Program-made: the position numbers and the translations under genes
IMG/VR virus record: IMGVR_UViG_3300048917_000230
Span: 1 to 24,036 of that record
Reading direction: 5' to 3' (one strand)
Source: a virus
DNA length: 24,036 bases
The notes under the pieces: model-generated
Databases searched by the model: none
Told to the model about the DNA's origin: nothing
Seen by the model: only the letters and a program-made list of their open reading frames with translations
In this document: positions 1,281 to 24,036 of the stretch, piece by piece
Layout: the number at the start of each line of letters is the position of its first letter
How positions within the stretch are numbered: position 1 is the stretch's first letter

Positions 1281-1861
1281 CCCAGCTCGAGATCGAAATC
1301 CGGAAGGTCGCAGACCAGCAGTTGGAGGTGTCGTTCCCGAAACGACAGATCGAACTCGTGGTGATGCCCTACGAGGTCGAGGCGCAGGTCGTCCACCGCG
1401 GCCGGATGATCCGCGAAATCGTCTCGCGCGGCGCGTTCGAGGGGATCGACGCGACCCGCCGCCGGATCGTCGTGAACCGCGAACATGTCCTCGACAAGGT
1501 CGTCGGGAAAGCGATCCGCTTCTACCCTTCGAGGGAGGAGGGGCTGGTTGCTGAGTTGCGGATCGCGCCGACCGAGCAGGGCGATGAAACGCTGGCGCTG
1601 GCGGATGAGGGTTTGTTGGATGCGTCGGCGGGGTTCGGTGTCCCGGACGGCGGCGAATCGTGGCCGGAACGCGGCCTGCGGCGCCTCTCGCGGCTCTGGT
1701 TGGACCACATCGCGATGACCCACTCGCCGGCCTATCAGGGCACGAACGTGCTCGCCGTCCGCGACAAAGACCCCGCCGTCGCCGTGCCGGCGGCGGCCCG
1801 GCCGAACCTCGAAATCGTCCGGGGCTGGCGTCTAGCCGACCGTTACGCTTTAATCGAATAG
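1277..1861 (+). CDS. Prohead maturation protease, HK97 family (S78/U35 type)
   Basis: Internal ATG of ORF 788..1861, coupled to the portal stop. Motifs IVVNREH (His) and LLDASAGFGV (Ser) fit the HK97 prohead protease layout. It lies between the portal and capsid genes. Confidence 0.85.
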   Translation: MTQLEIEIRKVADQQLEVSFPKRQIELVVMPYEVEAQVVHRGRMIREIVSRGAFEGIDATRRRIVVNREHVLDKVVGKAIRFYPSREEGLVAELRIAPTEQGDETLALADEGLLDASAGFGVPDGGESWPERGLRRLSRLWLDHIAMTHSPAYQGTNVLAVRDKDPAVAVPAAARPNLEIVRGWRLADRYALIE

Positions 1862-1937
1862 ACCACCAACACATATCCCCGTTGATGGCCCGTGGGGCGC
1901 CGGGGTTCCCGTGGGGTGAGGTGGACGCACGCAGCTG

Positions 1938-1958
1938 CGAAACGACAACCTCGTTTCG
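1938..1958 (+). promoter_or_regulatory. Perfect 8-bp stem / 5-nt loop hairpin (CGAAACGA-CAACC-TCGTTTCG) abutting the capsid RBS
   Basis: Read directly. The stem ends at 1958, AAAGGA lies at 1959-1964 and the capsid ATG at 1969. It sits in the only sizeable gap (107 nt) of the late operon. Confidence 0.6.
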
Positions 1959-1968
1959 AAAGGATGAC

Positions 1969-4240: not shown

Positions 4241-4398
4241 CCACCTACAAAGTCACCGGGCCGACCGCGTTCCAGGGCCACAAGCCGGGCGAACAGTTCG
4301 ACGCCGACCTCGACGAGAACGTCGAGCGGCGGGCGATCGCGAGAGGCTCGATCAAGAAGACCACCGCCAAGAAGAAGGAGGACGACAGCGATGCCTAA
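4237..4398 (+). CDS. Hypothetical small structural-module protein (53 aa, Lys-rich C-terminus)
   Basis: ATGA overlap with the upstream stop and an 8-nt overlap with the next gene. No motif recognised. Confidence 0.5.
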   Translation: MTTYKVTGPTAFQGHKPGEQFDADLDENVERRAIARGSIKKTTAKKKEDDSDA

Positions 4399-4822
4399 GC
4401 GGATCGCCCTGAAAGACTCGGTCGAGGTCGACTCGGTCGACCTCAGCGATTTCGCCCGGTCGGTCCGGTTCACGTCCGAGCACGAACAGGTCGACGTGTC
4501 CGGCTTCAACCCGACCGGCGCGAACGAATACCTGGCCGGCACCACCACCCAGAACGTCACCGTCGAGTTCTTCGGCTCCTACGGGACCGGCGAGGTGCAC
4601 GCGACGCTGTACCCGATCCACAAAGACCGCGAGGTCGTCCCGTTCGCGTGGCGGCCCGACCAGACCACGCCGGCTTCGGCGACGAACCCGGAGCTGCGCG
4701 GCAACGTGCAGATGCTGTCGTACGGCCCCGGCGGAACGAGAGGCGACGTCGACACGTTCGAGGCGACGTTCATCACCGCCGACGCCGCCGGCCTCGTCTT
4801 CGAAACCACCCCGCTCCCCTAG
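4391..4822 (+). CDS. Major tail (tube) protein
   Basis: 143 aa and beta-rich. EQVDVSGFNPTGANEYLAGTTTQNVTVEFFGSY and GNVQMLSYGPGGTRGDVDTFEATF match the usual tail-tube protein pattern. It lies upstream of the chaperone and tape measure genes. Confidence 0.6.
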   Translation: MPKRIALKDSVEVDSVDLSDFARSVRFTSEHEQVDVSGFNPTGANEYLAGTTTQNVTVEFFGSYGTGEVHATLYPIHKDREVVPFAWRPDQTTPASATNPELRGNVQMLSYGPGGTRGDVDTFEATFITADAAGLVFETTPLP

Positions 4823-5708: not shown

Positions 5709-7733
5709 TTGGCGAAGTCGGTCCGCGTTGATGTTGTCGCGGATGTCGCCCAGTACGAGCGGGCGTTGCGGAAGGCGGCGGCCGATACCAAGAAGTTCGA
5801 GCGGGCCGTCTCGCGGTCAACTCGGGAGGCGCAGGCCAGCACGGGTGCGTTCAAGGGGCTAGGGAAAACGATCACGGCGACGGCGGCCGGGTTCTTCGCG
5901 TTCCAGTCCGGCACCGAGATCCTCAGCGGCGCCGTCAACGCGCTCCGCACCTCGATCAGCGCGGCCCGCGACGCCCAGGTCACGCAACGCCAGCTTGCGA
6001 CCCAGCTGGCCGACGTCGGCGTCCAGTTCGGGGTTGTCCAGGACAAGATCGAGAAATCAAACTCGGCCTTGTCGAAGCTGTCCGGGTTCAACGTCGACGA
6101 GCTCGAGCAGTCACTCACCTTGTTGGTCAGGTCGACCGGTGACGTCAACGCCTCCCTAAAGCTGAACCAGGTGGCCGTCAACGTCGCCCGCGGCACCCAC
6201 AAAAGCCTGACTGTGGCCGCGAACGCGCTCGCGAAGGCGTACAACGGCCAGACCGGGGCGCTGAAACGGCTCGGTGTGACTCTGCCGCCAAATGTGAAAG
6301 GGATGCGGGCGATCACCTTCGTCGCGCAGAAGTTCGCCGGGCAGGCCGCCGCGAGCACAACCAGCACGCAGAGCTTCCAGGGGTCGCTGCACGACGTCGA
6401 GATCACGATCGGGACCGCGCTGCTGCCGCTGATGGACAAACTCGCCAAGAAAGCGACCGAGGTCACCGACAGCTTCAACAAGTTCGCGGAGAAGGCGAAA
6501 CAGCCCGGCACCCCGCAACACACGGAGGTGTCGAACCTGCGGGCGCTCGGGACGGCGTTCGGGTTCGTCGCAGGGCAAATCGACAAGGCGGTCGGTGCGG
6601 CGGGCGGCTGGATGCAGGTGCTGCCCGGCCTGAAGCAGCTCAGCGGTGCCGGATCGCTGCTGAGCCTGTTCGGTGTCAGCGGCGGCAGCAACGTGCCGCC
6701 ACCGCACTCCGATGTCGGGTTCCGCGACCCCGACCTGACCGCCCGGCTGAAACGGGCAGCAGACCAGCAGCAGGCGCGGAAAGCTCTTTCGGTCAAGCAG
6801 CGAAACGCCTGGTTCGACGCGATGATCGGCCGTCTGCAACTGAGGGCCGGTGTGACGACGGACCTCGACAAACAACTCGCGATCTACCGGGAGATCGCGG
6901 CGAAGCTGCAGGCGAGGATCAAAGTCACCAACGACATCACCCGGCTGCACAAGCTCGAAGACGAGGCGTTGCAGGTGCAGGCGCAGATCGCCGCCGACGT
7001 CGCCCAGAAACGCCAGCAGGCGATGGAGAACCTGCTGGGCGGCGCCGACATCGCGCTCCTGCAAGCCGACCTGACGAAAGGGCTGACCGACAACCTGGCC
7101 GCATTGGAGCTGCAACGACAACTGATCGTCAAAGCAATCCAGAAATACGGCGCCACGAAAGAACTGCAGCTGAAGCTGATCCAGAACCAGATCGACAGCC
7201 AAGGCCTCCACGAGCAGATGGCGGAACAGGCCAGGGAAGCGGCCGAACAGGCAAGGCAGGAGAAGATCGGCTGGATGGAGTTCGCGTACGAACGCGCCCA
7301 GGCAACCAAGACGGTCGCCGACGACCTGAAAAGGGCGAAGGCCCTGTTGGCGTACTGGCAGAAACAGGCTGCGACCGGGAAACGCACCCTGGAAGAGGCG
7401 CAGCAGGTGTGGCACTGGCAGCAGGAGATCGCGAACCTGCGGAAGAAGAGCGACGACCAGTTCGCGAAGTTCAAGCCGGTCGACGCCTCCAAGTTCGTCG
7501 CCGGGCTCGGCCTGAACCTGACGCCGGCGCAGACACGCAACCTGATCGGCGCGGTCGCCGGGATCAGCCGCGGCGGCAAACTCCCGCCCTCCCGCACGGC
7601 GGCGTTCGCCGGGGCGGGTGGGGTGACGATCCACAACGCGAACTTCTACGGCGTCCAGAACATCAAGCAGCTGGAGGAGGAGTCGCTGAAACGCGCCAAG
7701 GCTCGCCCGCAGCCGCGTCGCGGAGCCCGCTAG
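5709..7733 (+). CDS. Tape measure protein
   Basis: 674 aa with a TTG start. The sequence is long, Ala/Gln/Lys/Leu-rich and helical. Its position between the chaperone and distal tail genes fits. Confidence 0.85.
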   Translation: MAKSVRVDVVADVAQYERALRKAAADTKKFERAVSRSTREAQASTGAFKGLGKTITATAAGFFAFQSGTEILSGAVNALRTSISAARDAQVTQRQLATQLADVGVQFGVVQDKIEKSNSALSKLSGFNVDELEQSLTLLVRSTGDVNASLKLNQVAVNVARGTHKSLTVAANALAKAYNGQTGALKRLGVTLPPNVKGMRAITFVAQKFAGQAAASTTSTQSFQGSLHDVEITIGTALLPLMDKLAKKATEVTDSFNKFAEKAKQPGTPQHTEVSNLRALGTAFGFVAGQIDKAVGAAGGWMQVLPGLKQLSGAGSLLSLFGVSGGSNVPPPHSDVGFRDPDLTARLKRAADQQQARKALSVKQRNAWFDAMIGRLQLRAGVTTDLDKQLAIYREIAAKLQARIKVTNDITRLHKLEDEALQVQAQIAADVAQKRQQAMENLLGGADIALLQADLTKGLTDNLAALELQRQLIVKAIQKYGATKELQLKLIQNQIDSQGLHEQMAEQAREAAEQARQEKIGWMEFAYERAQATKTVADDLKRAKALLAYWQKQAATGKRTLEEAQQVWHWQQEIANLRKKSDDQFAKFKPVDASKFVAGLGLNLTPAQTRNLIGAVAGISRGGKLPPSRTAAFAGAGGVTIHNANFYGVQNIKQLEEESLKRAKARPQPRRGAR

Positions 7734-9137
7734 ATGCCACCCCCGGCCGGCAGGTTCCTGGTCGCGTTCGACGACCCCACCCTGGAATGGTCACCAACCT
7801 GGACCGCGTTGGACCAGGCGCACCCGTCGCTGGTCACCAGTTACACGATCGACCGGGGCCGCCAATACGAACTCGACCGCACCGACACCGGCAGGGCGAC
7901 CGTCGAGCTCAGGGACCGCGACGGCATCCTCGACCCGACCAACTCGAGCAGCCCGTATTACGGGAAGTTGGAGCCGTTGTTGCAGGCGATGATCGGCCGG
8001 CTCAACCCGATGGACGACGTCTGGTACACGCGTTACCGCGGTTTCATCGAAGACTTCGACTATTCGTTTGACCGGTCGCAACGGGTGAACATGCTGACCG
8101 TTCAACTGGTCGACCTGTTCGAGATCTTGGCGTCGATCGAGCTGCAACCCGGCCAGGCCGGCCAGACACCACCCTTGCAGTCGGAGGGCAACATCTTTTT
8201 CGAGCCCGACATGGTGAACGACCGCATCACCGGCATCCTCGGACCGACGCCACCATCAGGCGCGGGTGTTGGGATCCCCGCCGAGTACTGGGTGGTGTTC
8301 TCCGGCAACGTCGAGGTGTACCAGACCGTCTATAGCCCGGGCGAGAACGTCCTCTCCGTGATTCAGGAGGCGGCCGACGCCGAGTTTCCCGGCGCACCCT
8401 CCAACGTGTACGTCGACCGTTTCGGCCGGCTGGCGTTCCACGGCCGCTACAGCAAGTTCGACCCGGTCGGCGTCCACTCCGGCCTGTCGGATCCGTCGCT
8501 GTGGGAGTTCGTGCAGTGGAAGGTCGGCGACCGCGCCGCCGTCCTGGCGGCGCCGCCAGACCAGATGGCGCAGCTGCGGCGGTTCGCGTTCAACCGCGGC
8601 CTCTCGAAGGTGATCAACCAGGCCACGTCCACCCCGACCGAAGCGCCCCGCGGCACAGCGCTCACCCAGACGGAACTGGCCGCCCAGGTTGTCCAAGACC
8701 TGACGTCACAGGCCAAGTACGGGATCCGGTCCTGGTCGGCGCAGGAGCTGCTGACGCGCCGCCATAAGACAGGCGGCAACACCGACCTGCAGGAGACCAG
8801 GAAGTTCGCCGAGTACTACGTCGCGAACTACGCCCAACCGAGGAACCGGGTGACCGACATCGGGTTTCGCACCGTCCGGCCCGGCGCCGCCGGCGCAGGC
8901 GAAACCTGGGACCTGCTCTCCAGGATGGACATCAGCCATTCCGTGGCGATCACGATCGCGTCACCGGGCGGTGGTGGGTTCAACGCGGAGCCGTTCTTCG
9001 TCGAGGGCGTCCACGAAAACTGCCAGCCATTGGGCCCCGCCTACGACGACGTCACCATGACCTTGGATCTGTCGCCGAAGGCCTATTACGACGAGCCCGG
9101 CAAGTCAATCTTCGACGACGACACGGCCCCCGGCTGA
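7734..9137 (+). CDS. Distal tail protein / phage tail family minor tail protein
   Basis: 467 aa, directly after the tape measure gene. The N-terminus FLVAFDDPTLEWSPTWTAL...YTIDRGRQYELDRTDTGRATVELRDRDG is typical of siphovirus distal tail proteins. Confidence 0.7.
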   Translation: MPPPAGRFLVAFDDPTLEWSPTWTALDQAHPSLVTSYTIDRGRQYELDRTDTGRATVELRDRDGILDPTNSSSPYYGKLEPLLQAMIGRLNPMDDVWYTRYRGFIEDFDYSFDRSQRVNMLTVQLVDLFEILASIELQPGQAGQTPPLQSEGNIFFEPDMVNDRITGILGPTPPSGAGVGIPAEYWVVFSGNVEVYQTVYSPGENVLSVIQEAADAEFPGAPSNVYVDRFGRLAFHGRYSKFDPVGVHSGLSDPSLWEFVQWKVGDRAAVLAAPPDQMAQLRRFAFNRGLSKVINQATSTPTEAPRGTALTQTELAAQVVQDLTSQAKYGIRSWSAQELLTRRHKTGGNTDLQETRKFAEYYVANYAQPRNRVTDIGFRTVRPGAAGAGETWDLLSRMDISHSVAITIASPGGGGFNAEPFFVEGVHENCQPLGPAYDDVTMTLDLSPKAYYDEPGKSIFDDDTAPG

Positions 9138-11014
9138 TGAAGGCTACGAAGCCGATCCTGCACGGCCGCGACCACGTCCCCGGTGGCGCCGACCCGGTGC
9201 CGGGGATGCTGCCCGGCACATCGAGCGACTACCCCGGCTTCGTCCGCGGCAAAGCCAGCCTGCTCGGCTACTGGCGGCTCGGCGAAACCTCGCCGGGCCC
9301 GTTCGCCGACAGCAGCGGCGTCGGCGAACCGGCCGACGCCACCCGGACCACCCCCGGCGCCGTCGCACCCACCTACCACGTGACCGGGGCGCTGACCGAC
9401 AACGACGACGGCGCCTGGCAGCAGAACCACGCCGGCACGTTCGGCGGCCCCTCGGCGAACACTCAGTCGGACTGGTTCGTGACGGCCGCCAGCGTCGACT
9501 CGAAACACAACTTCGCGAGCGGCGAGTCGTACAGCGTCGTGGTGTGGGTGAAGCCGTTCGCGTCCACCTCTGTGTTTCAGGGCGGCATCATCGGCCGCGT
9601 CGCGACGGTTGCGGGCACCCCCGACTTCGAGGGCGGCTGGATCCTGAAGATGTCGTGGCCCGACCTGATCCTGGTCTGGGAACGCGGAACCCAGGCCGAC
9701 GGCGTGAAGACGGTGGCGTCGCCGTCCGGGCTTGCCCCGGACACGTGGGCGTTCGTCGCCGCCACCCACGACGGTGCCGCCCACACACTGAACCTGTACA
9801 TCAACGGCACCCTGGTCGCGACCGGGAGCGCCGGCACCGGCGACATCCCCTACCTGAACCTGGGGGCGCTCGACCTCGGCTCCGGCTACATGGACGCCGT
9901 GCTCGGCACCCCGGCCGGGGCGGCCGCCTACCAGGGGTCGTTCTACGGTGTCCTCGACGAGGCCGCGACGTTCCAGGGTGCCCTCACCCTCGAGGAGGTG
10001 CAGCAGCTGTACGCCGCCGCCCTCTCCGGTGGCGGCCCCGGCGACGTGCTCGGGATCGGCGACGACGGCAACCCGGCCTGGCAGCCGCCCGGCGTCGAGG
10101 TCGAACACGGCGGCGGCGTCCCCGAAGAGAACCCGGTCACGACACCGGGGTTTGCCTATGCGGGGTTTCCGGCCAACCCGTCCGGCTGGCATTACGCCGC
10201 CCACACCGAAACCGCCGTCCTCTACGACTCGGCGCCGGGCCGTTTCGACGTTCCGTCGATGAAGTGGGTGCGGACACCGTTCGACACCGTCCGTATTCAG
10301 CGCCGCTGGGAACTGACCGTCGGCGGGTCGTTCCGGGACGCCTGGCTGCCCGACGACCGCGGCCTGACCGAACACGCCCGCGACGGGCTGTTGCACATCA
10401 CCGCCGACATGGTGTCCGACACCGTCAAGCACATCATCAACGGGTTCTTCGCGATCGAATACCCGGTGCTCGACTATCAGGGTTTGCCGGACTTCACCGG
10501 CGGCGGCATCACAGCCCCCGACGACTACACCCGCGCCGGCCGTGTCCTGAACGCCTCGACCGGGGTTGTTCTGCGTCGGCTGCCCGGCTCTGCGCAGCGG
10601 CGGTTCATGCAGTGGGAGTGGTTCAACGACGCCGACGGGATGGCCGTCAGCGTCCTCTACACCGTCGACAACCCCTACCCGCTCTACCCCGCCTGGCCGG
10701 AGAGGCCGCTGACGTTGCCGCAACCCTATCCGCAGCTCTCCCCGACCGACTCGCTCGCCTACTACACAACCCCGGCCGGCAACCCCGGCTTCAACGACGG
10801 CACCTTCGAGCTCGAGCAGAACCTCGTCGCGGGCGACAACCTCTGTCTGCAGGCCTGGCAGGACTCGCCGTGGCTGCTGCGGTTCAGCACCGACCACTTC
10901 CCGAACTACACCCCGTTCCCGACCGTCGAGGTGTGGCGCCGCCGCCCGTTCCTGGCCGTCACCTACACCTACGACCCCGACAGCGTCGACCACGCCACCG
11001 GAAGGCTCCTCTGA
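9137..11014 (+). CDS. Minor tail protein with LamG/concanavalin-like lectin domain (candidate receptor-binding or tip protein)
   Basis: The N-terminal HGRDHVPGGADP motif is common in actinophage minor tail proteins. Residues ~40-295 (about nt 9254-10020) read LLGYWRLGE...SVVVWVKP...WAFVAATHDGAAHTLNLYINGTLV...FYGVLDEAATFQGALTLEEVQQLY, a LamG_3-like pattern. Confidence 0.7.
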   Translation: MKATKPILHGRDHVPGGADPVPGMLPGTSSDYPGFVRGKASLLGYWRLGETSPGPFADSSGVGEPADATRTTPGAVAPTYHVTGALTDNDDGAWQQNHAGTFGGPSANTQSDWFVTAASVDSKHNFASGESYSVVVWVKPFASTSVFQGGIIGRVATVAGTPDFEGGWILKMSWPDLILVWERGTQADGVKTVASPSGLAPDTWAFVAATHDGAAHTLNLYINGTLVATGSAGTGDIPYLNLGALDLGSGYMDAVLGTPAGAAAYQGSFYGVLDEAATFQGALTLEEVQQLYAAALSGGGPGDVLGIGDDGNPAWQPPGVEVEHGGGVPEENPVTTPGFAYAGFPANPSGWHYAAHTETAVLYDSAPGRFDVPSMKWVRTPFDTVRIQRRWELTVGGSFRDAWLPDDRGLTEHARDGLLHITADMVSDTVKHIINGFFAIEYPVLDYQGLPDFTGGGITAPDDYTRAGRVLNASTGVVLRRLPGSAQRRFMQWEWFNDADGMAVSVLYTVDNPYPLYPAWPERPLTLPQPYPQLSPTDSLAYYTTPAGNPGFNDGTFELEQNLVAGDNLCLQAWQDSPWLLRFSTDHFPNYTPFPTVEVWRRRPFLAVTYTYDPDSVDHATGRLL

Positions 11015-11400
11015 TGGAGCAGGGGATCGTTGAGATCGTCCGGCTGTACCTGGGGCGGGGTTTGCGCGGCGAACCGTTCGGCGTCGACGACGAGAAACTC
11101 GAGATGTCCGTCGACCTCCTGGATCTCGGCGAAGAGCTCGACGTCGCGCTCGACTACCTCGGCCACCACCTGACCGGCACCCTGGCCGCCAGGCCTGCCG
11201 CCGGGCTCGTCCCTATCGGGGCCCTGTACGCGGCCGACGACGGCAACATCTACCAGTCCGACGGCGCCGCCTGGACCGTCTGGACGACAGCCGGCAACCC
11301 GGCCAACGACAGCCAGGTCTGGATGCCGCTCGTCGACAGCGACGGCACCTGCGTCCTCGACAACACCGGCCTGATCCCAACCCTGATCACGCTCGCCTAA
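11014..11400 (+). CDS. Minor tail protein (128 aa)
   Basis: The ATG overlaps the upstream stop by 1 nt. It carries the RPAAG...GALY...DGNIYQSDGAAWTVW motif shared with the next fibre gene. Confidence 0.6.
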   Translation: MEQGIVEIVRLYLGRGLRGEPFGVDDEKLEMSVDLLDLGEELDVALDYLGHHLTGTLAARPAAGLVPIGALYAADDGNIYQSDGAAWTVWTTAGNPANDSQVWMPLVDSDGTCVLDNTGLIPTLITLA

Positions 11401-11411
11401 AGGAGCCCGCG

Positions 11412-12416
11412 ATGACAGCGACGACGTTCATAGGGCATTTCCTCGGCCCCGACGTCCACGCCTCCAGGCCAGCCGCCGCCGGGCTGCCCGAAGGAACGAT
11501 GTACGTTTGCACCACCCACGCCAAGATCGAACGCATCGTCACCGGTAGCTGGGTCGACTACGCCAGCCTCGCCGGAACCGAAACGCTGCCCGCCTCGATC
11601 CTCGACGCCAAAGGCGACCTGATCGCCGCCTCCGCCGCCGACACCGCCGCAAGGTTGCCCGTCGGTAGCAACAACCAGGTGCTGACCGCCGACTCAGCCC
11701 AAACCCTTGGCGTCAAGTGGGCGACCCCCGCCACCGCCCCCGGTGTGACGGCCGACACGATCTGGGACACCAAAGGCGACCTGGCCGTCGCAACCGCCGC
11801 CGACACCGCCGCGAAGCTGCCGGTCGGCAGCAACGGCCAGGTGCTGACCGCCGACTCGACACAGACGACCGGTGTCAAATGGGCTGCCGCCGCCGGGGCC
11901 TCGGGCGGGATGACGAAGCTGTTCGACTCCACCCTGGGCGCCGACGCCGCCACGATCGACACCGGCGCCGGCGGTGTCGCCGCCGGAAACGCCGCCCTGC
12001 AGATCCTCATCTACGCCCGCGTCACCACCGCCGGCCTCCCGAACGACCCGATCGGGATCAGGTTCAACAACGACACCTCAGGCAACTACCGGTACAGCTA
12101 CATCCGCAACAACTTCAACGCCATCACCGGCAACACCGGGTCAGGAACCTACTGGGAGCTGCTCGCCCCGGCCGCGACAGCGTCCGCCGGCGTGTTCGCG
12201 TCCTACCAGATCAGCATCCCGAACTACGCCAACACCAGCTTCCGCAAAGCGATCCAGTGCCAGGACGGCTTCGCGGACTCGGGCGGGTACGGCTGGGTGT
12301 TCTCCCGCACCTGCATGTGGGAGAACACGGCGGCGCTCAGCCGGGTCGCCGTCTACGTCCCCGGCGGCGCCAACCTGGCCGCCGGCTCCCGCATGACGAT
12401 CTTCGGACTCAACTAG
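11412..12416 (+). CDS. Tail fibre protein with two 40-aa internal repeats
   Basis: AAAGGAG RBS upstream. It has two copies of D(A/T)KGDL...AADTAA(R/K)LPVGSN.QVLTADS.QT.GVKWA. It is the last gene of the tail module, just before the lysin. Confidence 0.75.
   Translation: MTATTFIGHFLGPDVHASRPAAAGLPEGTMYVCTTHAKIERIVTGSWVDYASLAGTETLPASILDAKGDLIAASAADTAARLPVGSNNQVLTADSAQTLGVKWATPATAPGVTADTIWDTKGDLAVATAADTAAKLPVGSNGQVLTADSTQTTGVKWAAAAGASGGMTKLFDSTLGADAATIDTGAGGVAAGNAALQILIYARVTTAGLPNDPIGIRFNNDTSGNYRYSYIRNNFNAITGNTGSGTYWELLAPAATASAGVFASYQISIPNYANTSFRKAIQCQDGFADSGGYGWVFSRTCMWENTAALSRVAVYVPGGANLAAGSRMTIFGLN
11604..11723 (+). repeat. Fibre coding repeat, copy 1 (120 nt / 40 aa)
   Basis: Aligned by eye with 11766..11885. 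31 of 40 residues are identical. Confidence 0.9.
11766..11885 (+). repeat. Fibre coding repeat, copy 2 (120 nt / 40 aa)
   Basis: In frame, 162 nt downstream of copy 1. Confidence 0.9.
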
Positions 12417-13339
12417 TGAACTGGTGGGAGACCGGCTACCCGGGCGCACCGATGGTCAAGGTCGCCGGCTTCCCCCGACCGCTCTACCCCCCAGATGCGG
12501 CCCGGTACGGCAAACGCCCGTCGATTGACGGCCCTGACGTCGAAGCGTACAAACGCACCGTCAGCCGTGCCGGGCGTTGGCGGTGGCAGCAATTCGACGA
12601 CTCCTACTCGAACAGCTTCGCGCACGGTAAGGCGGGCGGGCATGTCGCCGACACCGGCATCGCAGGTGTGCAACGGCAGCAGAAGATCGACGACACCGGA
12701 TGGGTCGGCAAAACCACCTTCAACACGTTGCGCTCGATCCTGATCCCCGACGAGCTGCCGCACGCGGGCGAGCCCGCGATGGACGCGGTGGCGGTCGAGT
12801 TGATCGCCGAAGCATGGGCGAGGTTCGAAGGTCACGAGCCCGCACCGCCCTCCATGGGCACCGTCAGGGGGGCGGCGCTCGAGCGGGCCAACACGCAGAT
12901 CGGTGTCACCGAGCAGCCACCCAACTCCAACCAGTGCCTCTACACCGACTGGTACGGGATGGTCGGCCCGTGGTGCGCCATGTTCGCCACCTGGTGCTTC
13001 GAGCTGGGCGCGAACGACATAGGGGAAGACTCCCCGTCCTTCGTCCGCGGCCAACGCTACGCCTACGTGCCGTACATCGTCGCCGACGCCCGCGACGGCC
13101 TCCACGGCCTCACCACCACCGACGACCCCCGCCCAGGCGACCTGGTCTGCTTCGACTGGGCGTGGGACACCGTCTACGACCACGTCGGCCTCTTCGAAAG
13201 CTGGCTCGAAACAGGGCTGTTCTCCACGATCGAGGGGAACACCAGCCACGCCGACCAGTCGAACGGCGGCGAAGTCATGCGCCGCCAACGCTCCCTCGGC
13301 ACTCAGGGAACGGTGTTCGTCAGGGTCGCCGAACCATGA
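12416..13339 (+). CDS. Endolysin: N-terminal peptidoglycan-binding-like domain plus C-terminal CHAP peptidase/amidase
   Basis: CHAP-type motifs GPWCAMFATWCF (Cys), PGDLVCFDW...DHVGLFES (His) and TIEGNTS. The N-terminal part GPDVEAYKRTVSRAG...GVQRQQKIDDTGWVGKTTFNTL resembles PG_binding_1. The start is GTG 12416 or ATG 12452. Confidence 0.8.
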   Translation: MNWWETGYPGAPMVKVAGFPRPLYPPDAARYGKRPSIDGPDVEAYKRTVSRAGRWRWQQFDDSYSNSFAHGKAGGHVADTGIAGVQRQQKIDDTGWVGKTTFNTLRSILIPDELPHAGEPAMDAVAVELIAEAWARFEGHEPAPPSMGTVRGAALERANTQIGVTEQPPNSNQCLYTDWYGMVGPWCAMFATWCFELGANDIGEDSPSFVRGQRYAYVPYIVADARDGLHGLTTTDDPRPGDLVCFDWAWDTVYDHVGLFESWLETGLFSTIEGNTSHADQSNGGEVMRRQRSLGTQGTVFVRVAEP

Positions 13340-13500
13340 TCCCGATCGGGGTGACGACGATCCCCGACGAGGCGCTGATCACGATCAACAGCCTCGAGAT
13401 CCTCGGCATCATCTACCTCGCCGTCGCCGTCTCCAAGCTGCGGGAACGGATCGCCCGCATCGAAGGCAAAACCGAGCAACGAGAACGCGACCAGCTGTGA
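13336..13500 (+). CDS. Holin-like small membrane protein (54 aa)
   Basis: ATGA overlap with the endolysin stop. It has one hydrophobic helix (LEILGIIYLAVAV) and a charged C-terminus. Confidence 0.6.
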   Translation: MIPIGVTTIPDEALITINSLEILGIIYLAVAVSKLRERIARIEGKTEQRERDQL

Positions 13501-13691
13501 TCGCCTACTTCGACACCGTCGAAACGATCACCTCAGGTGTCGTCGTGTTCTTCGCGCTGATCGCGTTGATCACGATCATCCGGATCATCCTGCGGCGTGA
13601 GGAGACGTCGTGGCGGGGCATCCGCGTCGGGTTCTTCATCGAACGACACGGACACCCCCGCCACGACACCGATGAAGACGGCGAGCTCTAG
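13497..13691 (+). CDS. Holin-like small membrane protein (64 aa)
   Basis: GTGA overlap with the upstream stop. It has one helix (VVVFFALIALITIIRIIL) and a charged, acidic C-terminus. Confidence 0.6.
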   Translation: MIAYFDTVETITSGVVVFFALIALITIIRIILRREETSWRGIRVGFFIERHGHPRHDTDEDGEL

Positions 13692-13813
13692 CGGCTCAAG
13701 TGCCAATCGCGGAAGACATACACGGCTGTCCACGCGGCCAACGTCAGCCAGACCCAACCGATGATCCACTGCATGTGGTGGGCGGCCAACCACAGCAGAA
13801 CCGTAAGCGTCAT
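13688..13813 (-). CDS. 41-aa Trp-rich membrane peptide (below the ORF-track size cutoff)
   Basis: Hand translation gives MTLTVLLWLAAHHMQWIIGWVWLTLAAWTAVYVFRDWHLSR. The ATG overlaps the upstream TAA by 1 nt (TAATG). GC3 is high. Its stop overlaps the convergent holin-like gene stop. Confidence 0.55.
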   Translation of the reverse strand: MTLTVLLWLAAHHMQWIIGWVWLTLAAWTAVYVFRDWHLSR

Positions 13814-14163
13814 TAGAAGATCCTCGTCCAGCCCGACTTGCGCAGGCTCTTGGCGAGCAGCGGACAGGCGACCGCCCCGTACACCGCGTTAGGCGACCTG
13901 ACCGTCGCGACCGCGGCGCCGCTGCCGTACTCGAACCCGCATCTGGCGGCGCCCCGTGGACTGGTGTAGATCCGGACGAGCGAGCCCTTCGCGCCGACCC
14001 CGACCTCGTCGCAGGCAACCCGGGCGGCGGCACCGGTCATCGTCATGTAGATCGGAAAGCCGGTCATCTTGTAAGTGCAGCCGGCGCCAGCCGATGCGGC
14101 CGGTGCGGCCGACACGGCGATCAGGGCAGCGACGGCCACGGCAAGGATTGCGAGGTACTTCAT
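13813..14163 (-). CDS. Secreted small protein with four Cys (signal peptide, 116 aa); moron candidate
   Basis: The internal ATG at 14163 is preceded by AAAGGAG. The N-terminus MKYLAILAVAVAALIAVSAAPAASA-GAGC is a Sec-type signal. The mature part has 4 Cys. I recognised no family. Confidence 0.7.
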   Translation of the reverse strand: MKYLAILAVAVAALIAVSAAPAASAGAGCTYKMTGFPIYMTMTGAAARVACDEVGVGAKGSLVRIYTSPRGAARCGFEYGSGAAVATVRSPNAVYGAVACPLLAKSLRKSGWTRIF

Positions 14164-14327
14164 GGTGCTCCTTTGTCCCAGTTCCCGCCGGCCTCCATGC
14201 CGACGGTTCACCGGCCACAGTAGACGAGCCCGCCGGCGGAATGACCTACCGAAACGTCTAAACCGTGACGGGCTACTCTGCCGGTTCGGCCTGGCCGCCG
14301 TGCGTCCCAGTACGGCGCCGGGCCGAC

Positions 14328-14624
14328 CTACTCGTCGTTCTTGTTGTTGTGCGCGGCGAGTTCCTCACGGATGATCTCCCGCAGCCGCTGCTCGCCGACG
14401 CCGCCGACGGTCTGGTCGCCGTACAGAAACCATTCCTCCGGCTTGTTCATCAGGCGGCCTAGCTCCCGTAGGTGGCGGTAGGGGATAGTGGTGCCGGCCT
14501 CGTAGTCCTGCAGTGACCGTTTCGAGAACGACGCCATCGCGGCCAACTCGTCCTGAGTCAGCCCGCGCTCGTTTCTGGCCTGCCTGATCCGGGCGCCGAT
14601 CGCGTCGGCGTCGAACTGCTGCAT
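14328..14624 (-). CDS. XRE-family HTH repressor (CI-like), no peptidase domain
   Basis: IGARIRQARNERGLTQDELAAMASFSKRSLQDYEAGTTIP is a classic HTH_XRE motif. It is divergent from a Cro-like gene. The start is taken at Met27 of ORF 14328..14702; the longer start remains possible. Confidence 0.8.
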   Translation of the reverse strand: MQQFDADAIGARIRQARNERGLTQDELAAMASFSKRSLQDYEAGTTIPYRHLRELGRLMNKPEEWFLYGDQTVGGVGEQRLREIIREELAAHNNKNDE

Positions 14625-14754
14625 GAGCAGAAATCTGCGGAAGTTGCGCCCGTTTGTCGCCGCAGATACTTGCGCCGCCCGAGTTCTGCGCTTACCCTGC
14701 ATCTTTGCTGCATATCAATACCGCCGCAGCTTTTCTGCGTCAAGGGTGGGGACG
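14625..14754. promoter_or_regulatory. Divergent immunity-switch region with three GCAG-N4/5-CTGC-type imperfect palindromes
   Basis: AGCAGAAATCTGCG (14626-14639), CGCAGATACTTGCG (14661-14674) and CGCAGCTTTTCTGCG (14725-14739) have A/T-rich centres. There is an AT-rich core, CATATCAATA, at 14711-14720. I could not assign promoters with confidence. Confidence 0.5.
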
Positions 14755-14973
14755 ATGACGTTGATGGGCTTCACCGAGGAACTAGGCAAGCGCGTCAAGG
14801 CGCGACGCGTCAGCCTGCACCTCAGCCAACGCGAAGCCGCCCAGCAACTCGGGATCTCCGAACGCACCCTGCAGAACTGGGAAGCCGGCACGACGATCCC
14901 CTGGCCGAAACACCGGCGGCTGCTCGAGCGGTTCCTCCAGGAAGACCCACCCGCCGAGGTGTCGCACGGCTAG
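14755..14973 (+). CDS. Cro-like XRE-family HTH protein (72 aa)
   Basis: Internal ATG 14755 of ORF 14623..14973. LGKRVKARRVSLHLSQREAAQQLGISERTLQNWEAGTTIP is an HTH_XRE motif. The gene is divergent from the repressor. Confidence 0.75.
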   Translation: MTLMGFTEELGKRVKARRVSLHLSQREAAQQLGISERTLQNWEAGTTIPWPKHRRLLERFLQEDPPAEVSHG

Positions 14974-15002
14974 ACCATGCAAGCCGTCGTCACGACCCGT
15001 TC

Positions 15003-15062
15003 GGGCTATTTACCTCCACCCCGCTGGACGACTACCATCCATGCCGACAACACAAATAGCCC
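15003..15062. repeat. Inverted repeat GGGCTATTT ... AAATAGCCC (9 bp arms, 42-bp spacer) between cro-like gene and int
   Basis: Read directly. The segment is AT-richer and contains a TTA codon if read as coding. A third copy of the motif lies at 16497-16507. Confidence 0.7.
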
Positions 15063-15138
15063 CCGCACCGCAGCAACGGCCGGGGGCAGGCACAGAAGGG
15101 TTGATCTTCCATGCGCCAACGATCTTACGACGCAGCTC

Positions 15139-16050
15139 ATGCAGCTCGTCGAGGCCTACCTACCCGCGGTGGTCGACATGCCGCGTGACCTGCGCCACCA
15201 CCAGGCCGCGGCGTTCGACAAGCTGGCCGCCTGGCTCGACTGGCTCGACCTCGAGGGCAAACGGCCCCGCACCATCCACAACTACGAACGCTGCGTTGCC
15301 GTCCTGCTGCGCCTCTACCCCGGCGTGCCGTTCGACGAGTTCACATCGGAGATGGTCAACCGGGCTTTGCGGATGGTGCCGCAACGGTCTCGGTATATCA
15401 GCCGCTCGGTCTACAACCAGTGGTTCGAATGGGGCGAACGGTACGACCACATTCCCCGCACCCCGATGATCAAGGTGCCGAAGATGAAAGCCGGGCCACG
15501 CCGCCCCACCGGTCTGTTCCAGGAGGCCGAGGTGGCGCTGCTGACCGGGCTGCCGGTGCAGGACGGTGCCCTCTTCGCGCTCCTCTTCGGAGCCCTCCTC
15601 CGCCGCGAGGACGCCATCAAGCTGCAACGCCGGCACATCGACCTCGACCATCTGCGGGTGATGATCTACGACGGCAAGGGCGGCAAAGACGCGATCATCC
15701 CGATTACCCCCCAGACCGCCGCCGCCGTCGCCGACCACGACCTCCTGCTCCGCCTCGACCCTGACGATCACCTCTGGTACCGGGCCAAGCTCAACAAGAG
15801 CAGGAAGACGGGGATCAGCTCGAGCGAGTTCTCCCGCTGGTACTACCGCTGCATCGCCGCCGCCGGCGTCCGCGACCTGAAGCCCCACACCACCCGGCAC
15901 ACCGGCCACTGGATCCTCAAGCACGTCGAGAAGCTCGACCTCGAGGAGCGCAGGCTGGTGCTCCGCCATGAGTCGTCGGAGACGACGGTGCGGCAGTACC
16001 CGGTGACCGACATCGAAGACGTCGCCCGCAAACGAGCAGGGGTGACCTGA
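15139..16050 (+). CDS. int: Tyrosine recombinase / phage integrase
   Basis: Catalytic layout: LLRREDA (Arg), GKGGKDAIIP (Lys), HTTRHTG (HxxR), LRHESSETTVRQY (His...Tyr). The start is taken at Met55. The upstream 54 codons of ORF 14977..16050 have poor GC3. Confidence 0.8.
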   Translation: MQLVEAYLPAVVDMPRDLRHHQAAAFDKLAAWLDWLDLEGKRPRTIHNYERCVAVLLRLYPGVPFDEFTSEMVNRALRMVPQRSRYISRSVYNQWFEWGERYDHIPRTPMIKVPKMKAGPRRPTGLFQEAEVALLTGLPVQDGALFALLFGALLRREDAIKLQRRHIDLDHLRVMIYDGKGGKDAIIPITPQTAAAVADHDLLLRLDPDDHLWYRAKLNKSRKTGISSSEFSRWYYRCIAAAGVRDLKPHTTRHTGHWILKHVEKLDLEERRLVLRHESSETTVRQYPVTDIEDVARKRAGVT

Positions 16051-16250
16051 TGGAACCGCTCACCTGGACATGCCACGTCTGCGGCCGCGAGAGGCCCGAC
16101 GAGCGGATCTCCGTCTACTCACGCCACGTCACGCTCGGCGGCGGGGTCGTCGCGAAAGAGAACGTCCGCTACTGCAACGACCGGCCTGCCTGCGCAGCCG
16201 GGGCGATCGAGAAGCGCTGGCTTCAGCCGGCCCCCGAAGGTGAGGCGTAA
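16050..16250 (+). CDS. Small Cys-pair (zinc-ribbon-like) protein, 66 aa
   Basis: The ATG overlaps the int stop by 1 nt. It has CHVCG ... YCNDRPAC. Confidence 0.55.
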   Translation: MEPLTWTCHVCGRERPDERISVYSRHVTLGGGVVAKENVRYCNDRPACAAGAIEKRWLQPAPEGEA

Positions 16251-16564
16251 GCCGTGAGGGCAACTGGCCGCCCGAACGGGGTAGAACGGCTGACGGGGGA
16301 GGGGGGCGTAAACGAGTCGTCCCCTGCTAGACGGTCAGCAGATGTCACCTCTGGCGGCGTTCATTCGCTGCCAAGTACGTCGCCCCCCGCCGTGAGTCGT
16401 TCTCTGGTCTCGAGCCCGTCAGCTTGGCGGACAACGGCCCGCCCAACTGGTTTCGCTCAACGGTGCGGGATAGGCGGACGCTGGAACGCTTTAGGCGTAA
16501 ATAGCCCAACGGGCCGTTTTGCGGGGGTTCCGCCCAACTCCCTGCAACGCCGGAGGATCGTAGC
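16251..16564. other. 314-bp non-coding island rich in short direct repeats (candidate attP, early promoter or origin)
   Basis: Repeats present: GAACGG x2 (16274, 16284), CAACGG x3 (16432, 16458, 16507), CCGCCCAACT x2 (16439, 16530), GGCGTAAA x2 (16305, 16494) and GAGTCGT x2 (16314, 16394). The only ORF here translates to Ser/Pro/Arg/Gly low-complexity sequence. Confidence 0.6.
16497..16507 (+). repeat. Third copy of the AT-rich motif GTAAATAGCCC
   Basis: The 11-mer is identical to the reverse complement of 15003-15013 and shares AAATAGCCC with 15054-15062. Confidence 0.7.
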
Positions 16565-17990: not shown

Positions 17991-18662
17991 ATGAGACCGC
18001 GTTTGCTGGATTTGTTCTGCGGCGCCGGCGGGGCGGCGGTCGGTTATCACCGTGCCGGCTTCGAGGTGGTTGGCGTCGACATCGTCAGGCAGCCGAACTA
18101 CCCGTTCGAGTTCGTCCAGGATGACGCGCTTGCGCTGCTCTCCACCTTCACCCCGTCGGTGAACGGCTGGTGGGATGAGCCGCCGTTCGACGCGATCCAT
18201 GCGTCGCCGCCGTGTCAGGAGTACAGCTCGGCAGGCAAGGCCAACAAAGTTACGCTCGGCACGGTCTACGTCGACCTTTACGAGGCGACGCGGACGCTGC
18301 TCGAGCAGACCGGCCTTCCCTGGGTGATCGAGAACGTGACTGCGGCACCGTCGCGGTCGGGGATGGTGCTTTGCGGCTCGATGTTCGGACTCCCGATCCG
18401 GCGTCACCGGACATTCGAGAGTTCTCACCTGATGCTCTGTCCGGCGCATTGTGATCACAAGCCGGACGCAATCACAGTTACGGGACATTCCCCGCAACGC
18501 TGGCTTAGCGGTGCTCGCAAGACGGTCACTCGAGACGAATACGAGCGGGCAATGGGCATCGACTGGATGACGACCGCCGAGCTCGTGCAGGCGATCCCGC
18601 CCGTCTACACCGAGCTGATCGGCCACCAACTGATGCAGCACATCCGGGTGAGGGCGGCGTGA
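17991..18662 (+). CDS. DNA (cytosine-5) methyltransferase, compact (223 aa), orphan
   Basis: Motif I DLFCGAGG, motif IV SPPCQEYS, motif VI VIENV, motif VIII-like RRHRTF, and C-terminal QAIPPVYTELIG. No adjacent restriction endonuclease candidate. Confidence 0.85.
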   Translation: MRPRLLDLFCGAGGAAVGYHRAGFEVVGVDIVRQPNYPFEFVQDDALALLSTFTPSVNGWWDEPPFDAIHASPPCQEYSSAGKANKVTLGTVYVDLYEATRTLLEQTGLPWVIENVTAAPSRSGMVLCGSMFGLPIRRHRTFESSHLMLCPAHCDHKPDAITVTGHSPQRWLSGARKTVTRDEYERAMGIDWMTTAELVQAIPPVYTELIGHQLMQHIRVRAA

Positions 18663-19125: not shown

Positions 19126-19815
19126 ATGGCCGAAACCGTGAACAGCACCCTGCCCGCAGTCCGTGAGAGCCGCTTGGACGACCTGGCCCGGTTGGGCACA
19201 TGGCTCGCCCTGTCCGAGTCGGGCAGCGACAGCGAAAAAGCAAAAGGGGCAGCAGCCGCCCTTCGCCTGTACTACGCCTCCGAGCTCGGGCTGCCGCCGT
19301 TGGCCGCGGCCGAGCTGTCGGTGATCCACGGCCGCCTCTTCGTCTCCGCCCAACTCCTACGGGCGCTGGCGGAACGCCACGGCTACCGCATCCAACGCGT
19401 CGACGACAGCGACACCGCCGCAACCGCCGTGCTCACCAAGGGCGACGTCGAGCTCGGCCGGTCAACGTTCACGATCGAAGACGCCAAACGCGCCGGCCTC
19501 GTCCGCGCACGGTCACCGTGGGAAACCCACCCGGCCCGCATGTGCTGGGCCAGGGCATCCAAGAACGTGATCCAGGACTACGCCCCCGGCGTCGCGTTGG
19601 GGCTCTCACTCGACGACGAGGCAGCCGAATACACCAGCACCCGTCGTAGCGAAGAGCCGATCGTCGTTCACGCGACCTACGTCGACGCTGACGACCCTGT
19701 CGAGCCCGCCGACGAAGAGGAGTCGAAATACGTGGCGCCCGCTTCGGTGCGTCAGGCGAACGAGCAGCGGGTCGAGGAAGAACTAGCCAAACACGCAGAC
19801 CTCGTCGAGGAGTAA
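19126..19815 (+). CDS. recT: RecT-family single-strand annealing protein
   Basis: ASELGLPPLAAAELSVIHGRLFVSAQLLRALAERHGY...FTIEDAKRAGL...SPWETHPARMCWARASKNVIQDYAP fits the RecT layout as I recognise it. No profile search was run. Confidence 0.65.
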   Translation: MAETVNSTLPAVRESRLDDLARLGTWLALSESGSDSEKAKGAAAALRLYYASELGLPPLAAAELSVIHGRLFVSAQLLRALAERHGYRIQRVDDSDTAATAVLTKGDVELGRSTFTIEDAKRAGLVRARSPWETHPARMCWARASKNVIQDYAPGVALGLSLDDEAAEYTSTRRSEEPIVVHATYVDADDPVEPADEEESKYVAPASVRQANEQRVEEELAKHADLVEE

Positions 19816-22193: not shown

Positions 22194-23948
22194 ATGACGA
22201 GCTCGACGGCGGCTCGGGGCTATAGCGGGGCGCATCAGCGGATACGGAAAGAGTGGGCGCCGTTGGTGAAGGCGGGCAAGGTTGATTGCGCGAGGTGTGG
22301 CCGGCCGATCGGGGCGTTCGAGCCGTGGGATCTGGGGCATGTCGACGGCAGCCGTGTTCGGTATCAGGGGCCGGAGCATGTGCGGTGTAACCGGGCGACG
22401 TCGTCGCGTCGGCCTGGTGCCAGGTCTCGGCCCCGTCCGGTGCCGCCGGTTGCGCCGCCGGCGCCGGTGTTGGAGCGGCCGGGGTTGTTGGCTTCGGATG
22501 AGCGGTGGCGTGTTCCGTGGTTGCGTGGGTTGCGGAGGGTGCCGAAGGACGCGACGTGGCCGAGGTTGATGACGGTTCCGCACCCTTCTGCGGTGGGGTC
22601 GTTGGGGCCGCAGTTCATCCGGTGGGCTGAGGCACGGGAGGGCAGGCCGTTGCGGTGGTGGCAGCGGCTTGTCGCGACGAGGCTGCTCGAGGTCGACGGC
22701 GACGGGTCGTTGCTGTGGGAGACGATGGTGTTGTCGATGGCCCGCCAGCTCGGGAAGTCGTGGCTGCTCCGCGAGTTGTTGTTGTGGCGGATCCATCAGG
22801 GAGACCGGTTCGGCGAGCCGCAGGACTGTCTCCACACGGGCAAAGACATCGCGGTTTGCAAAGAGATCCAGCGGCCCGCCCGGTTGTGGGCGCGTGCGCA
22901 GCCGGACCTGTACAAGGTGCGTGAGGTCAACGGGCAGGAGTCGATCGAGTACCTCGCCGACGGGTCGAGGTGGATGCTGAAGGCGAAGGGCGCCCCGTAC
23001 GGCTACGGGGTATCGCTTGCCGTCGTCGATGAGGCGTGGAAGGTGAAGCAGGAAGAGGTCGACGACGGGGTGGCGCCGACGCTGGTTGAGCGGCTGCAGA
23101 CGCAGACGCTGCTGGTCTCGACGGCGCACCGGCTCGCGGAAGGGTTGATGGTGAACAGCCGCCGGCTGGCGTTGGAGCAGCTCGAGCAGGGTGACGGTTC
23201 GCTGCTGATCGAATGGTCTGCGCCCGGGGACGCCAAGCTCGACGACGTGAAGACGTGGCGGTTCGCGTCGCCGCACTGGACGCCGAAACGGGAACGGCTG
23301 ATCGGCCAGCAGCTGCAGGCCGCCCAGTCCGGCGAGCTCAGAGACCCGGACGAGCCGGACCCGCTCGAGTCGTTCAAGGCGCAGTGGCTGAACCAGTGGC
23401 CGGCGAAACGGTTCAGCGGCGACCAACTGGTGCCGCCCGGACGGTGGGCACAACTCGTCGAGTCGGGGCTGCAGGAGTTCGGGCCGTTGTGGGTCGCGGT
23501 CGAAGACGCGCACGGCCACGGCGGCGCCGTCGCAGCCGCCGCACGCACCGAAGACGGAAGGATCGAGGTCGACGGGTGGACGTTCCAGGACTGGGACTCC
23601 GCGATCGACGCTGCTCTGCGGTTGGGGGAGCATCGGAAGATCCGGCAGCTACTCGTCGGCGCGTCGATGTTGTCGCGGGTAGCGCCAGGCACGGTCCCGG
23701 CTCCGATGCCCGCCGGAAGCAGGGAGCTGCGGCCGTGCCTGGCACTGCTCCGCGACCTCGCCGCATCCGGCGCCATCGTCCACGACCCCGCGACAGTCGA
23801 GCTCGACGAGGCTGTGGCGCAGGCCCGTGTCAGGGAGACGTCGTCGGGGTTGCAGTTGACGCTGCAAGAGAAGTCCCACCTCGTACGGGCGCTCGTCTGG
23901 GCGGTCGGCGCGGCGCACAAACCGGCGCCGATGCCGGTGATTCAGTAG
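22194..23948 (+). CDS. terL: Large terminase subunit with in-frame N-terminal HNH endonuclease domain
   Basis: Residues 8-68 read RGYSGAHQRIRKEWAPLVKAGKVDCARCGRPIGAFEPWDLGHVDGSRVRYQGPEHVRCNRA (HNH). An Arg/Pro linker follows. The TerL part has Walker A ARQLGKSW and Walker B-like SLAVVDEAW. The stop is 10 nt before the circular junction repeat. Confidence 0.85.
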   Translation: MTSSTAARGYSGAHQRIRKEWAPLVKAGKVDCARCGRPIGAFEPWDLGHVDGSRVRYQGPEHVRCNRATSSRRPGARSRPRPVPPVAPPAPVLERPGLLASDERWRVPWLRGLRRVPKDATWPRLMTVPHPSAVGSLGPQFIRWAEAREGRPLRWWQRLVATRLLEVDGDGSLLWETMVLSMARQLGKSWLLRELLLWRIHQGDRFGEPQDCLHTGKDIAVCKEIQRPARLWARAQPDLYKVREVNGQESIEYLADGSRWMLKAKGAPYGYGVSLAVVDEAWKVKQEEVDDGVAPTLVERLQTQTLLVSTAHRLAEGLMVNSRRLALEQLEQGDGSLLIEWSAPGDAKLDDVKTWRFASPHWTPKRERLIGQQLQAAQSGELRDPDEPDPLESFKAQWLNQWPAKRFSGDQLVPPGRWAQLVESGLQEFGPLWVAVEDAHGHGGAVAAAARTEDGRIEVDGWTFQDWDSAIDAALRLGEHRKIRQLLVGASMLSRVAPGTVPAPMPAGSRELRPCLALLRDLAASGAIVHDPATVELDEAVAQARVRETSSGLQLTLQEKSHLVRALVWAVGAAHKPAPMPVIQ

Positions 23949-23958
23949 CGCCGACTTG

Positions 23959-24036
23959 CATTAGGCGTATGCTGCTAGGTGATGGCCCGCTTGTTTACGC
24001 GGGCGATCCGGCCGCCCGATCCTGAGATCCCGAACG
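23959..24036. repeat. Right copy of the exact 78-bp terminal direct repeat (identical to 1..78)
   Basis: Base-for-base identity read directly. It contains a truncated duplicate of the portal 5' end. Confidence 0.95.

Follow-up and report, generated by a model that had tools for sequence, protein, structure and literature searches.

The lysogenically expressed variable region of the cluster N mycobacteriophages lies between the lysis and immunity genes, differs in content between similar phages and is rich in small membrane proteins that belong to no family (PMC7542560, PMC6426606). The locus described here has the same kind of position and content in an uncultured soil virus, IMG/VR record IMGVR_UViG_3300048917_000230, of which the whole stretch of 24,036 nucleotides (nt) was analysed and is referred to as the window. 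It is a minus-strand block at 13688–14163 with two genes, one for an exported protein of 116 amino acids (aa) and one for a 41-aa Trp-rich membrane peptide, as far as their locations can be predicted. The site that they fill is termed the slot, and its genes the cargo. Unlike the cluster N region, to which it bears no sequence relationship, the slot consists of a single short unit, made up of a conserved leader and one or two genes, and it is known from sequence alone. In the account that PMC7542560 and PMC6426606 give of Dedrick et al. 2017, the Charlie prophage uses a single membrane protein to keep Che9c from injecting its DNA.

In lambda (cI-rexA-rexB) and in Gordonia phage CarolAnn (45-44-43), accessory genes are placed directly downstream of the repressor and are co-transcribed with it (PMC7542560, PMC6426606). 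The slot cargo is likewise co-oriented with the repressor and immediately downstream of it, and one product is predicted to reside in the membrane. The proteins themselves are different. RexB, gp43 and gp31 of phage Sbash contain four transmembrane segments, while RexA and gp44 contain DUF4747; neither the four-transmembrane protein nor its cytoplasmic DUF4747 partner, both of which are required in RexAB-like systems, is found here, and the two slot proteins have no DUF4747 or other match in Pfam or PADLOC. Moreover, unlike in lambda and CarolAnn, the cargo is set apart from the repressor by a conserved hairpin and a −10-like element and may thus be transcribed on its own.

Superinfection exclusion is also performed by single small proteins, such as the lipoprotein Llp of T5 and the small membrane proteins Imm of T4 and gp15 of HK97. 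Ltp of Streptococcus phage TP-J34 is a surface-acting superinfection-exclusion lipoprotein (PMC3952083). The slot products resemble all of these in being small, phage-encoded and, by prediction, exported to or embedded in the envelope. The 116-aa protein differs from Ltp and Llp in having neither a lipobox nor sequence similarity to them, and the 41-aa peptide is shorter than any of the four. Some proteins of this type are produced not only by prophages but also early in the lytic cycle.

Morons are independent transcription units added between conserved phage genes (Hendrix; Cumby et al., PMC3594210). The slot shares with them the presence, absence or replacement of genes in near-identical genomes, a promoter-like element upstream, a hairpin downstream and a place on the prophage side. 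It differs in that its promoter and terminator are putative and that the cargo does not clearly stand out as foreign in base composition, with a guanine-plus-cytosine (GC) content of 68.7% and 60.3% for the two genes against 66.7% for the genome.

A hypervariable slot with interchangeable cargo

On one side of the slot are the CHAP endolysin and its holin-like genes, on the other the repressor/Cro/integrase switch. The genes of the slot and its immediate neighbours are as follows.

13497–13691 (+): final gene of the lysis cassette, for a 64-aa single-transmembrane protein with a charged C-terminus, converging on the slot
13688–14163 (−): the 116-aa and 41-aa genes together
13688–13813 (−): gene of the 41-aa Trp-rich membrane peptide, overlapping the upstream TAA with its ATG and the TAG of the convergent 64-aa gene with its own TAG
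13813–14163 (−): gene of the 116-aa exported protein, with an ATG start; signal peptide (residues 1–25) at 14089–14163, mature domain at 13816–14088
14328–14702 (−): HTH_3 repressor as a 124-aa open reading frame (ORF); 14328–14624 in the 98-aa form of the public gene calls

For comparison, 80 related metagenome loci were fetched, anchored on the endolysin. Among phages with 96–98% identical endolysins, the cargo found in the same place differs, and six configurations occur.

116-aa protein alone: the 116-aa gene loci
116-aa and 41-aa proteins: the haplotype of the window
61-aa and 41-aa proteins: L008–L013, and also L049 (endolysin 84% identical)
88-aa or 74-aa protein with two transmembrane segments: L040, L044/45
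142-aa or 146-aa protein with a common N-terminal anchor and differing Cys-containing ectodomains: L041/42, L043/46
118-aa secreted protein: L050

Genes at this fixed site are therefore present, absent or replaced among close relatives, as is characteristic of morons. Every cargo protein has a predicted signal peptide or transmembrane segment, seen as an N-terminal or internal hydrophobic segment, and none matched a known family in Pfam, PHROGs, NCBIfam or PADLOC. The right-hand boundary of the slot is fixed, as homologues of the 64-aa transmembrane gene (57–60 aa) abut the cargo in all related loci. Endolysin relatives of 69% identity or less belong to phages with another genome layout and no comparable slot. 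The original prediction of an accessory slot between the lysis and immunity modules is borne out by this variability among near-identical phages, by the predicted restriction of the cargo to exported and membrane proteins and by a layout like those in the literature.

The two genes of the window appear, from the sequences compared, to be two independent cargo modules and not a fixed two-part system. Their combination was found in one haplotype only, that of the window and of two identical contigs from the sister JGI samples 3300048901 and 3300048902, L006 and L007, the former covering the genome portion from the slot rightwards. The nearest relatives of the 116-aa protein are 89–97% identical (P0002 on five contigs, P0008 and L048), and three protein variants on seven contigs (L001–L005, L048 and L120) are encoded without any trace of the small gene. 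In these loci the convergent transmembrane gene stops no more than 2 nt past the TAA of the 116-aa gene. Conversely, the 41-aa gene follows an unrelated 61-aa membrane protein in L008–L013 and in L049, with the overlap TGATG; a truncated contig, L047, also carries the 41-aa gene. The 61-aa protein had no match among GenBank phages. The usual partner of the small gene in related phages is thus not the secreted protein. Every other locus reached through the 116-aa gene lacks the small ORF, an outcome that the original prediction had named as refuting, and the suggestion that the two form an exclusion pair was not supported.

Many contigs of the lineage (the right end of L006 and L001–L013) end at the slot or within a few hundred nt of it, as would be expected if co-existing strains differ there and so break the assemblies.

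The predicted secreted 116-aa protein

The start codon of the 116-aa gene is preceded at a distance of 4 nt by the Shine-Dalgarno sequence AAAGGAG (14168–14174). In the longer 132-aa GTG-start ORF of which the gene is part, the GC content at third codon positions (GC3) amounts to 0.83. The N-terminus of the protein has a single hydrophobic stretch (residues 4–20) followed by A-S-A, and the mature part comprises 91 residues, is basic and contains four Cys. The coordinates, translations and Cys and Trp counts of the original prediction agree with this, as do its TAATG junction, the AAAGGAG before the first ATG and the 164-nt gap to a co-oriented repressor.

The family was searched for in an exhaustive HMMER scan of 1.84 billion representative proteins, which gave 20 matches, of which around 17 are true relatives of 104–118 aa. 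P0013 and P0024 were excluded as repeat or low-complexity proteins, and P0021, a 1,939-aa protein matching in multiple stretches, was excluded without inspection. The family alignment shows C29, C51, C75, C100 and G96 to be invariant. The mature part opens with the motif C-T-Y-K-M-x-G-x-P-V-Y, and mature domains are 78–91 aa long, with exactly four Cys, a net charge of +4 to +11 and an isoelectric point of 9.0–10.5. The residue preceding the first Cys varies (often P, T, E or S), and an AxA-type cleavage site is present 3–6 residues upstream, which indicates a type-I signal and not a lipobox. The P, T, E or S at this position rules out a lipoprotein.

The four invariant Cys probably form two disulfides. 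AlphaFold2 gave a predicted local distance difference test score (pLDDT) of 81 for the full-length protein, and a pLDDT of 88 with a predicted template-modelling score (pTM) of 0.78 for the mature domain, the modelled topology of which is beta-beta-alpha-beta-beta-beta-alpha-beta. A Foldseek search with the full-length model against PDB and BFVD, and with the mature model against PDB, returned a best E-value of 0.38 and template-modelling scores (TM-scores) of no more than 0.43. The protein has no match in Pfam, PHROGs, NCBIfam or PADLOC, in PDB by sequence profile, or among GenBank phages or IMG/VR. The original prediction recognised neither protein, and these searches assigned this one to no known family. 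Streptomyces subtilisin inhibitor is a secreted alpha+beta protein with two disulfides; a likeness to it was considered and dropped, as the inhibitor was absent from the listed Pfam and Foldseek results.

From its distribution, the family is a phage accessory family spread across different hosts. Neighbours of its distant members include homologues of PHROG 636/DUF6011 and of Tad4/PHROG 9822. No small gene like the 41-aa one was called downstream of the distant members.

The 41-aa Trp-rich peptide

The stop codon of the 116-aa gene and the start codon of the 41-aa gene have one base in common (TAATG, 13811–13815), and GAGGA lies 7 nt 5′ of the second ATG. At its other end, the gene overlaps the stop codon of the convergent 64-aa gene (CTAG, 13688–13691). 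The peptide contains six Trp. Residues 1–34 are uncharged and the tail reads RDWHLSR. The peptide scores +14 kcal/mol over 19 residues on the Wimley-White octanol scale, more than the neighbouring holin-like protein. Most likely, it spans the membrane once, the N-terminal helix being interfacial and the C-terminus intracellular. The original description of a secreted four-Cys protein and a membrane peptide thus agrees with the predicted Sec-type signal, the invariant Cys residues and the hydrophobicity of the peptide.

The 41-aa ORF is almost certainly a real gene. Six distinct nucleotide versions are known in addition to a divergent 43-aa version in L049, and all seven keep the six Trp, the ATG, the frame, the one-base stop/start overlap and, at the 3′ end, the overlap with the convergent stop codon. 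Indels among them are multiples of 3, and the frame is intact even in a version with 24% non-synonymous divergence and two in-frame 3-nt indels. GC3 is 0.86, while the GC content at second codon positions (GC2) is 0.45. The 126 nt of DNA are found as a clean unit or not at all. The public gene calls on L006 include the ORF without a name; in them, no genes other than this one, the 116-aa gene and the repressor have this orientation, in accordance with the predicted minus-strand block. No homologue of the peptide was found beyond this phage lineage, either among GenBank phages or in IMG/VR with an alignment of the 41-aa versions.

The leader and the flanking hairpins

The cargo is preceded by a leader and followed, within the convergent gene, by an inverted repeat.

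14164–14327 (−): slot leader, 164 nt between the repressor stop codon (14328) and the 116-aa gene
14286–14326 (−): 15-bp GC-rich hairpin, starting 3 nt after the repressor stop codon
14245–14263 (−): conserved leader block GTTTAGACGTTTCGGTAGG
14217–14222 (−): −10-like element TACTGT
14185–14206 (−): second leader hairpin, the stem of which differs between versions
13607–13618 / 13656–13667: perfect 12-nt inverted repeat in the 3′ end of the convergent transmembrane gene, 21 nt beyond the final stop codon of the cargo

Conservation of the leader, around 165 nt long, begins at the stop codon of the upstream regulator, of which there are three kinds, and ends at the start codon of the first cargo gene, of which there are five. 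The 15-bp hairpin is invariant in 11 of 11 leader versions, including that of L049, in which the next 60 nt have diverged. As three different regulators precede it, this hairpin is not specific to one immunity type. It is not followed by a T-run; a terminator without a tail, a site of RNA processing and a recombination boundary are all conceivable roles.

An element of the form TANNNT is conserved as TACTGT in the window, TATCTT in L049 and TACTCT in L050. In L050 the leader homology ends just past TACTCT-GGCCGG, and a different 5′ untranslated region follows. This break is consistent with TACT(G/C)T being the −10 element of a promoter and the remainder being transcribed cargo. The leader RNA has a predicted folding energy of −81.4 kcal/mol (z-score of −2.1). 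The Rfam scan of the region and of the whole window assigned the leader to no family, and the motif next to its ribosome-binding site is not repeated elsewhere in the genome.

The 12-nt inverted repeat spans a G-(V/F)-F-(L/I)-E-R...H-P motif of the convergent protein and is GC-rich, with no T-run. Relatives carry a different inverted repeat in the same place (CGGGGTGTTCTTCG-N10-CGAGGAACACCCCG), for example at 1741–1778 of L009, 1097–1150 of L001 and 1058–1095 of L046. Judged by this arrangement, the repeat may be a bidirectional terminator shared by the two convergent units.

The phage genome

The first 78 nt of the window are identical to the last 78 nt (1–78 and 23959–24036), which indicates that the contig is a closed circle and the genome is about 23,958 bp long. 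The window represents a complete, unusually small temperate actinophage genome running from terminase through integrase, methylase and RecT, with the layout of a small siphovirus-type phage. The genes outside the slot that define this layout are the following.

21–1280: portal, with around 50% identity to mycobacteriophage portals; many Microbacterium phages match too
1660–3192: major head protein
4391–4822: major tail protein
5709–7733: probable tape measure, by position and size, with no PHROG match
11412–12416 (+): tail fibre
12416–13339 (+): CHAP endolysin
13336–13500 (+): 54-aa single-transmembrane gene, between the endolysin and the 64-aa transmembrane gene
14755–14973 (+): Cro-like 72-aa helix-turn-helix gene, divergent from the repressor
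14977–16050 (+): tyrosine integrase
17991–18662: DNA methylase
19126–19815: RecT
22194–23948: terminase

The repressor matches Pfam HTH_3 with an E-value of 1.4e-10 and also the PHROG “transcriptional repressor” families. The gene in the repressor position varies between near-identical phages (L001, L003/L004, L040, L046 and L049). Three types are found: the HTH_3 protein of 98–124 aa, a 62–79-aa protein (…SGE(S/T)(I/V)RDIAP…) and an 83-aa protein (…IGVSTRRIAEAAGVAVSTVQTW…). Several immunity types thus seem to exist within the lineage, alongside the several types of cargo.

The 54-aa transmembrane gene is extra in the window, the closest relatives having one transmembrane gene after the endolysin; a homologue is present in the more distant L071. 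A segment of 314 nt without a gene call (16251–16564), which follows the integrase and a 66-aa gene, is a candidate region for the phage attachment site attP. ARAGORN calls a tRNA-Ser(gct) at 9272–9343 (−), inside the 625-aa minor-tail ORF (9137–11014, +); Rfam did not find a tRNA there at gathering score, and the call is probably a false positive.

The DNA from 11400 to 16100 gave no match among GenBank phages. A search of GTDB genomes with the 116-aa protein gave no match, and the endolysin query retrieved only CHAP-domain matches of at most 44% identity, so that neither the host nor an integrated copy was identified. No relative was found among cultured genomes in these GTDB searches. The two protein families, the leader and the phage lineage have no described relatives in the libraries searched, while the kind of locus, a prophage accessory slot with small envelope proteins, is already known.

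Proposed function and alternatives

The explanation preferred here, with moderate confidence, is that the region is a moron-type cargo slot on the prophage side for envelope-acting accessory genes, plausibly serving superinfection exclusion. The leader would supply the 15-bp hairpin, the −10-like TACTGT, the second hairpin and a strong Shine-Dalgarno sequence, and would be followed by interchangeable cargo that ends against the stop codon of the last lysis gene. The first module of the window would be a Sec-exported, strongly basic 91-aa protein with two probable disulfides from an orphan phage family. The second would be a 41-aa peptide, most likely with one span and a basic cytoplasmic C-terminus, translated by coupling to whichever gene lies upstream. 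Both proteins would most likely be made by the lysogen and act at the cell envelope. As all cargo is predicted to be targeted to the envelope, interference with other phages at the level of the surface or membrane is the most likely role, and blocking of adsorption or DNA entry is the most plausible form of it. The uniform positive charge of the 116-aa family suggests that the secreted protein could bind anionic wall polymers, while the peptide could act in the membrane.

Several observations weigh against this explanation. No cargo protein resembles a known defence or exclusion family in PADLOC, Pfam or PHROGs. The 116-aa protein has no lipobox, transmembrane anchor or recognised wall-binding domain, so that its retention on the cell is a guess from charge alone. 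Distant members of its family are found in co-oriented arrays of small genes on phage-like contigs of 44–57% GC and not beside repressors, which indicates that the function of the family is not tied to lysogeny; exclusion proteins made early in lytic growth would fit this arrangement. The Tad4 homologue mentioned above (PF25186, PHROG 9822, E-value of 1.3e-39) is encoded at 1397–1759 of one such contig, L022 (44% GC), three genes downstream of a distant family member. A sigma-70 consensus scan of 13300–15100 found no promoter, and covariation in the two leader hairpins was not significant, as 175 of 500 shuffles reached the observed value; the cargo may be transcribed either from its own promoter or by read-through from the repressor. 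Finally, the ratio of non-synonymous to synonymous substitution (dN/dS) of the 41-aa gene is 0.35–0.48, no better than that of one shifted frame, and it therefore adds little on coding status.

The main rival, which is considered unlikely, is a role in bacterial competition or lysogenic conversion, in which the cationic disulfide-bonded protein would be bacteriocin-like or wall-active and the peptide might provide self-protection. Bacteriocins and their immunity genes classically have this layout, in which a gene for a tiny hydrophobic peptide follows that of a secreted protein. All members of the 116-aa family are small, secreted, strongly basic and possess exactly four Cys, as befits a Sec-dependent bacteriocin, and no anchor would hold the protein on the producer cell. 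However, the immunity gene of such bacteriocins should be invariably linked to the toxin gene, whereas the putative toxin is encoded without the putative immunity gene in most loci, and the peptide also occurs with the 61-aa partner, which is not secreted. Distant homologues of the protein, moreover, lie among the small genes of phage-like contigs, and no similarity to a bacteriocin family was found in Pfam or NCBIfam.

A more elaborate form of the preferred explanation is quite doubtful. It would make the leader and the stop codon of the lysis gene a dedicated exchange-and-expression platform that shuffles a private repertoire of envelope proteins. The four-Cys protein would then represent a new fold that masks receptors by coating anionic wall polymers, and the 41-aa peptide a portable membrane module providing a second, independent block at DNA entry.

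An obligate two-component exclusion system, in which the 116-aa and 41-aa proteins act at the envelope only together, is improbable. The TAATG overlap with GAGGA ahead of the second ATG and the complementary predicted locations, one secreted and one in the membrane, agree with it, and two-gene prophage defences such as CarolAnn 43/44 and Sbash or Butters 30/31 provide a precedent. It is contradicted by the single haplotype in which the two genes meet, by the 116-aa variants whose stop codon abuts the convergent gene directly, by the lack of a called small gene beside distant family members and by the 61-aa protein that precedes the small gene wherever upstream sequence is available (L047 being truncated).

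It is very unlikely that the genes belong to the lysis module, for instance with the 41-aa peptide as an antiholin or a modulator of lysis timing for the adjacent single-transmembrane proteins. The genes do adjoin holin-like genes, with overlapping stop codons, and the peptide resembles small holins and antiholins in its one hydrophobic stretch and short basic tail. However, holins and antiholins are encoded in the late lysis operon and conserved with the endolysin, whereas these genes lie on the other strand, behind the repressor and the conserved leader, and no holin family was matched in Pfam or PHROGs. Phages with 96–98% identical endolysins have other cargo or do without these genes, which are thus not needed for lysis.

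That the 41-aa ORF is a chance open frame in a GC-rich spacer between convergent genes is hardly credible: it is very short, its dN/dS does not separate it from one shifted frame and its homologues are confined to this lineage, but seven versions, one of them strongly diverged, keep its frame, start, overlap and six Trp, its GC3 far exceeds its GC2, and the 126-nt unit is cleanly present or entirely absent.

Significance

The locus illustrates that two independent modules brought together by recent recombination can read as a translationally coupled pair in a single genome. The 41-aa peptide exemplifies the very small membrane proteins that annotation usually leaves nameless. The 116-aa family, with around 17 unannotated members and a confident model that has no structural neighbour, is an inexpensive target for structure determination and localisation. 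If the proposed function is true, this lineage of ~24 kb soil actinophages would constitute a compact natural library of envelope-acting anti-phage or conversion genes, and, as one conserved leader precedes all of the cargo, each could be tested in an otherwise identical genetic setting.

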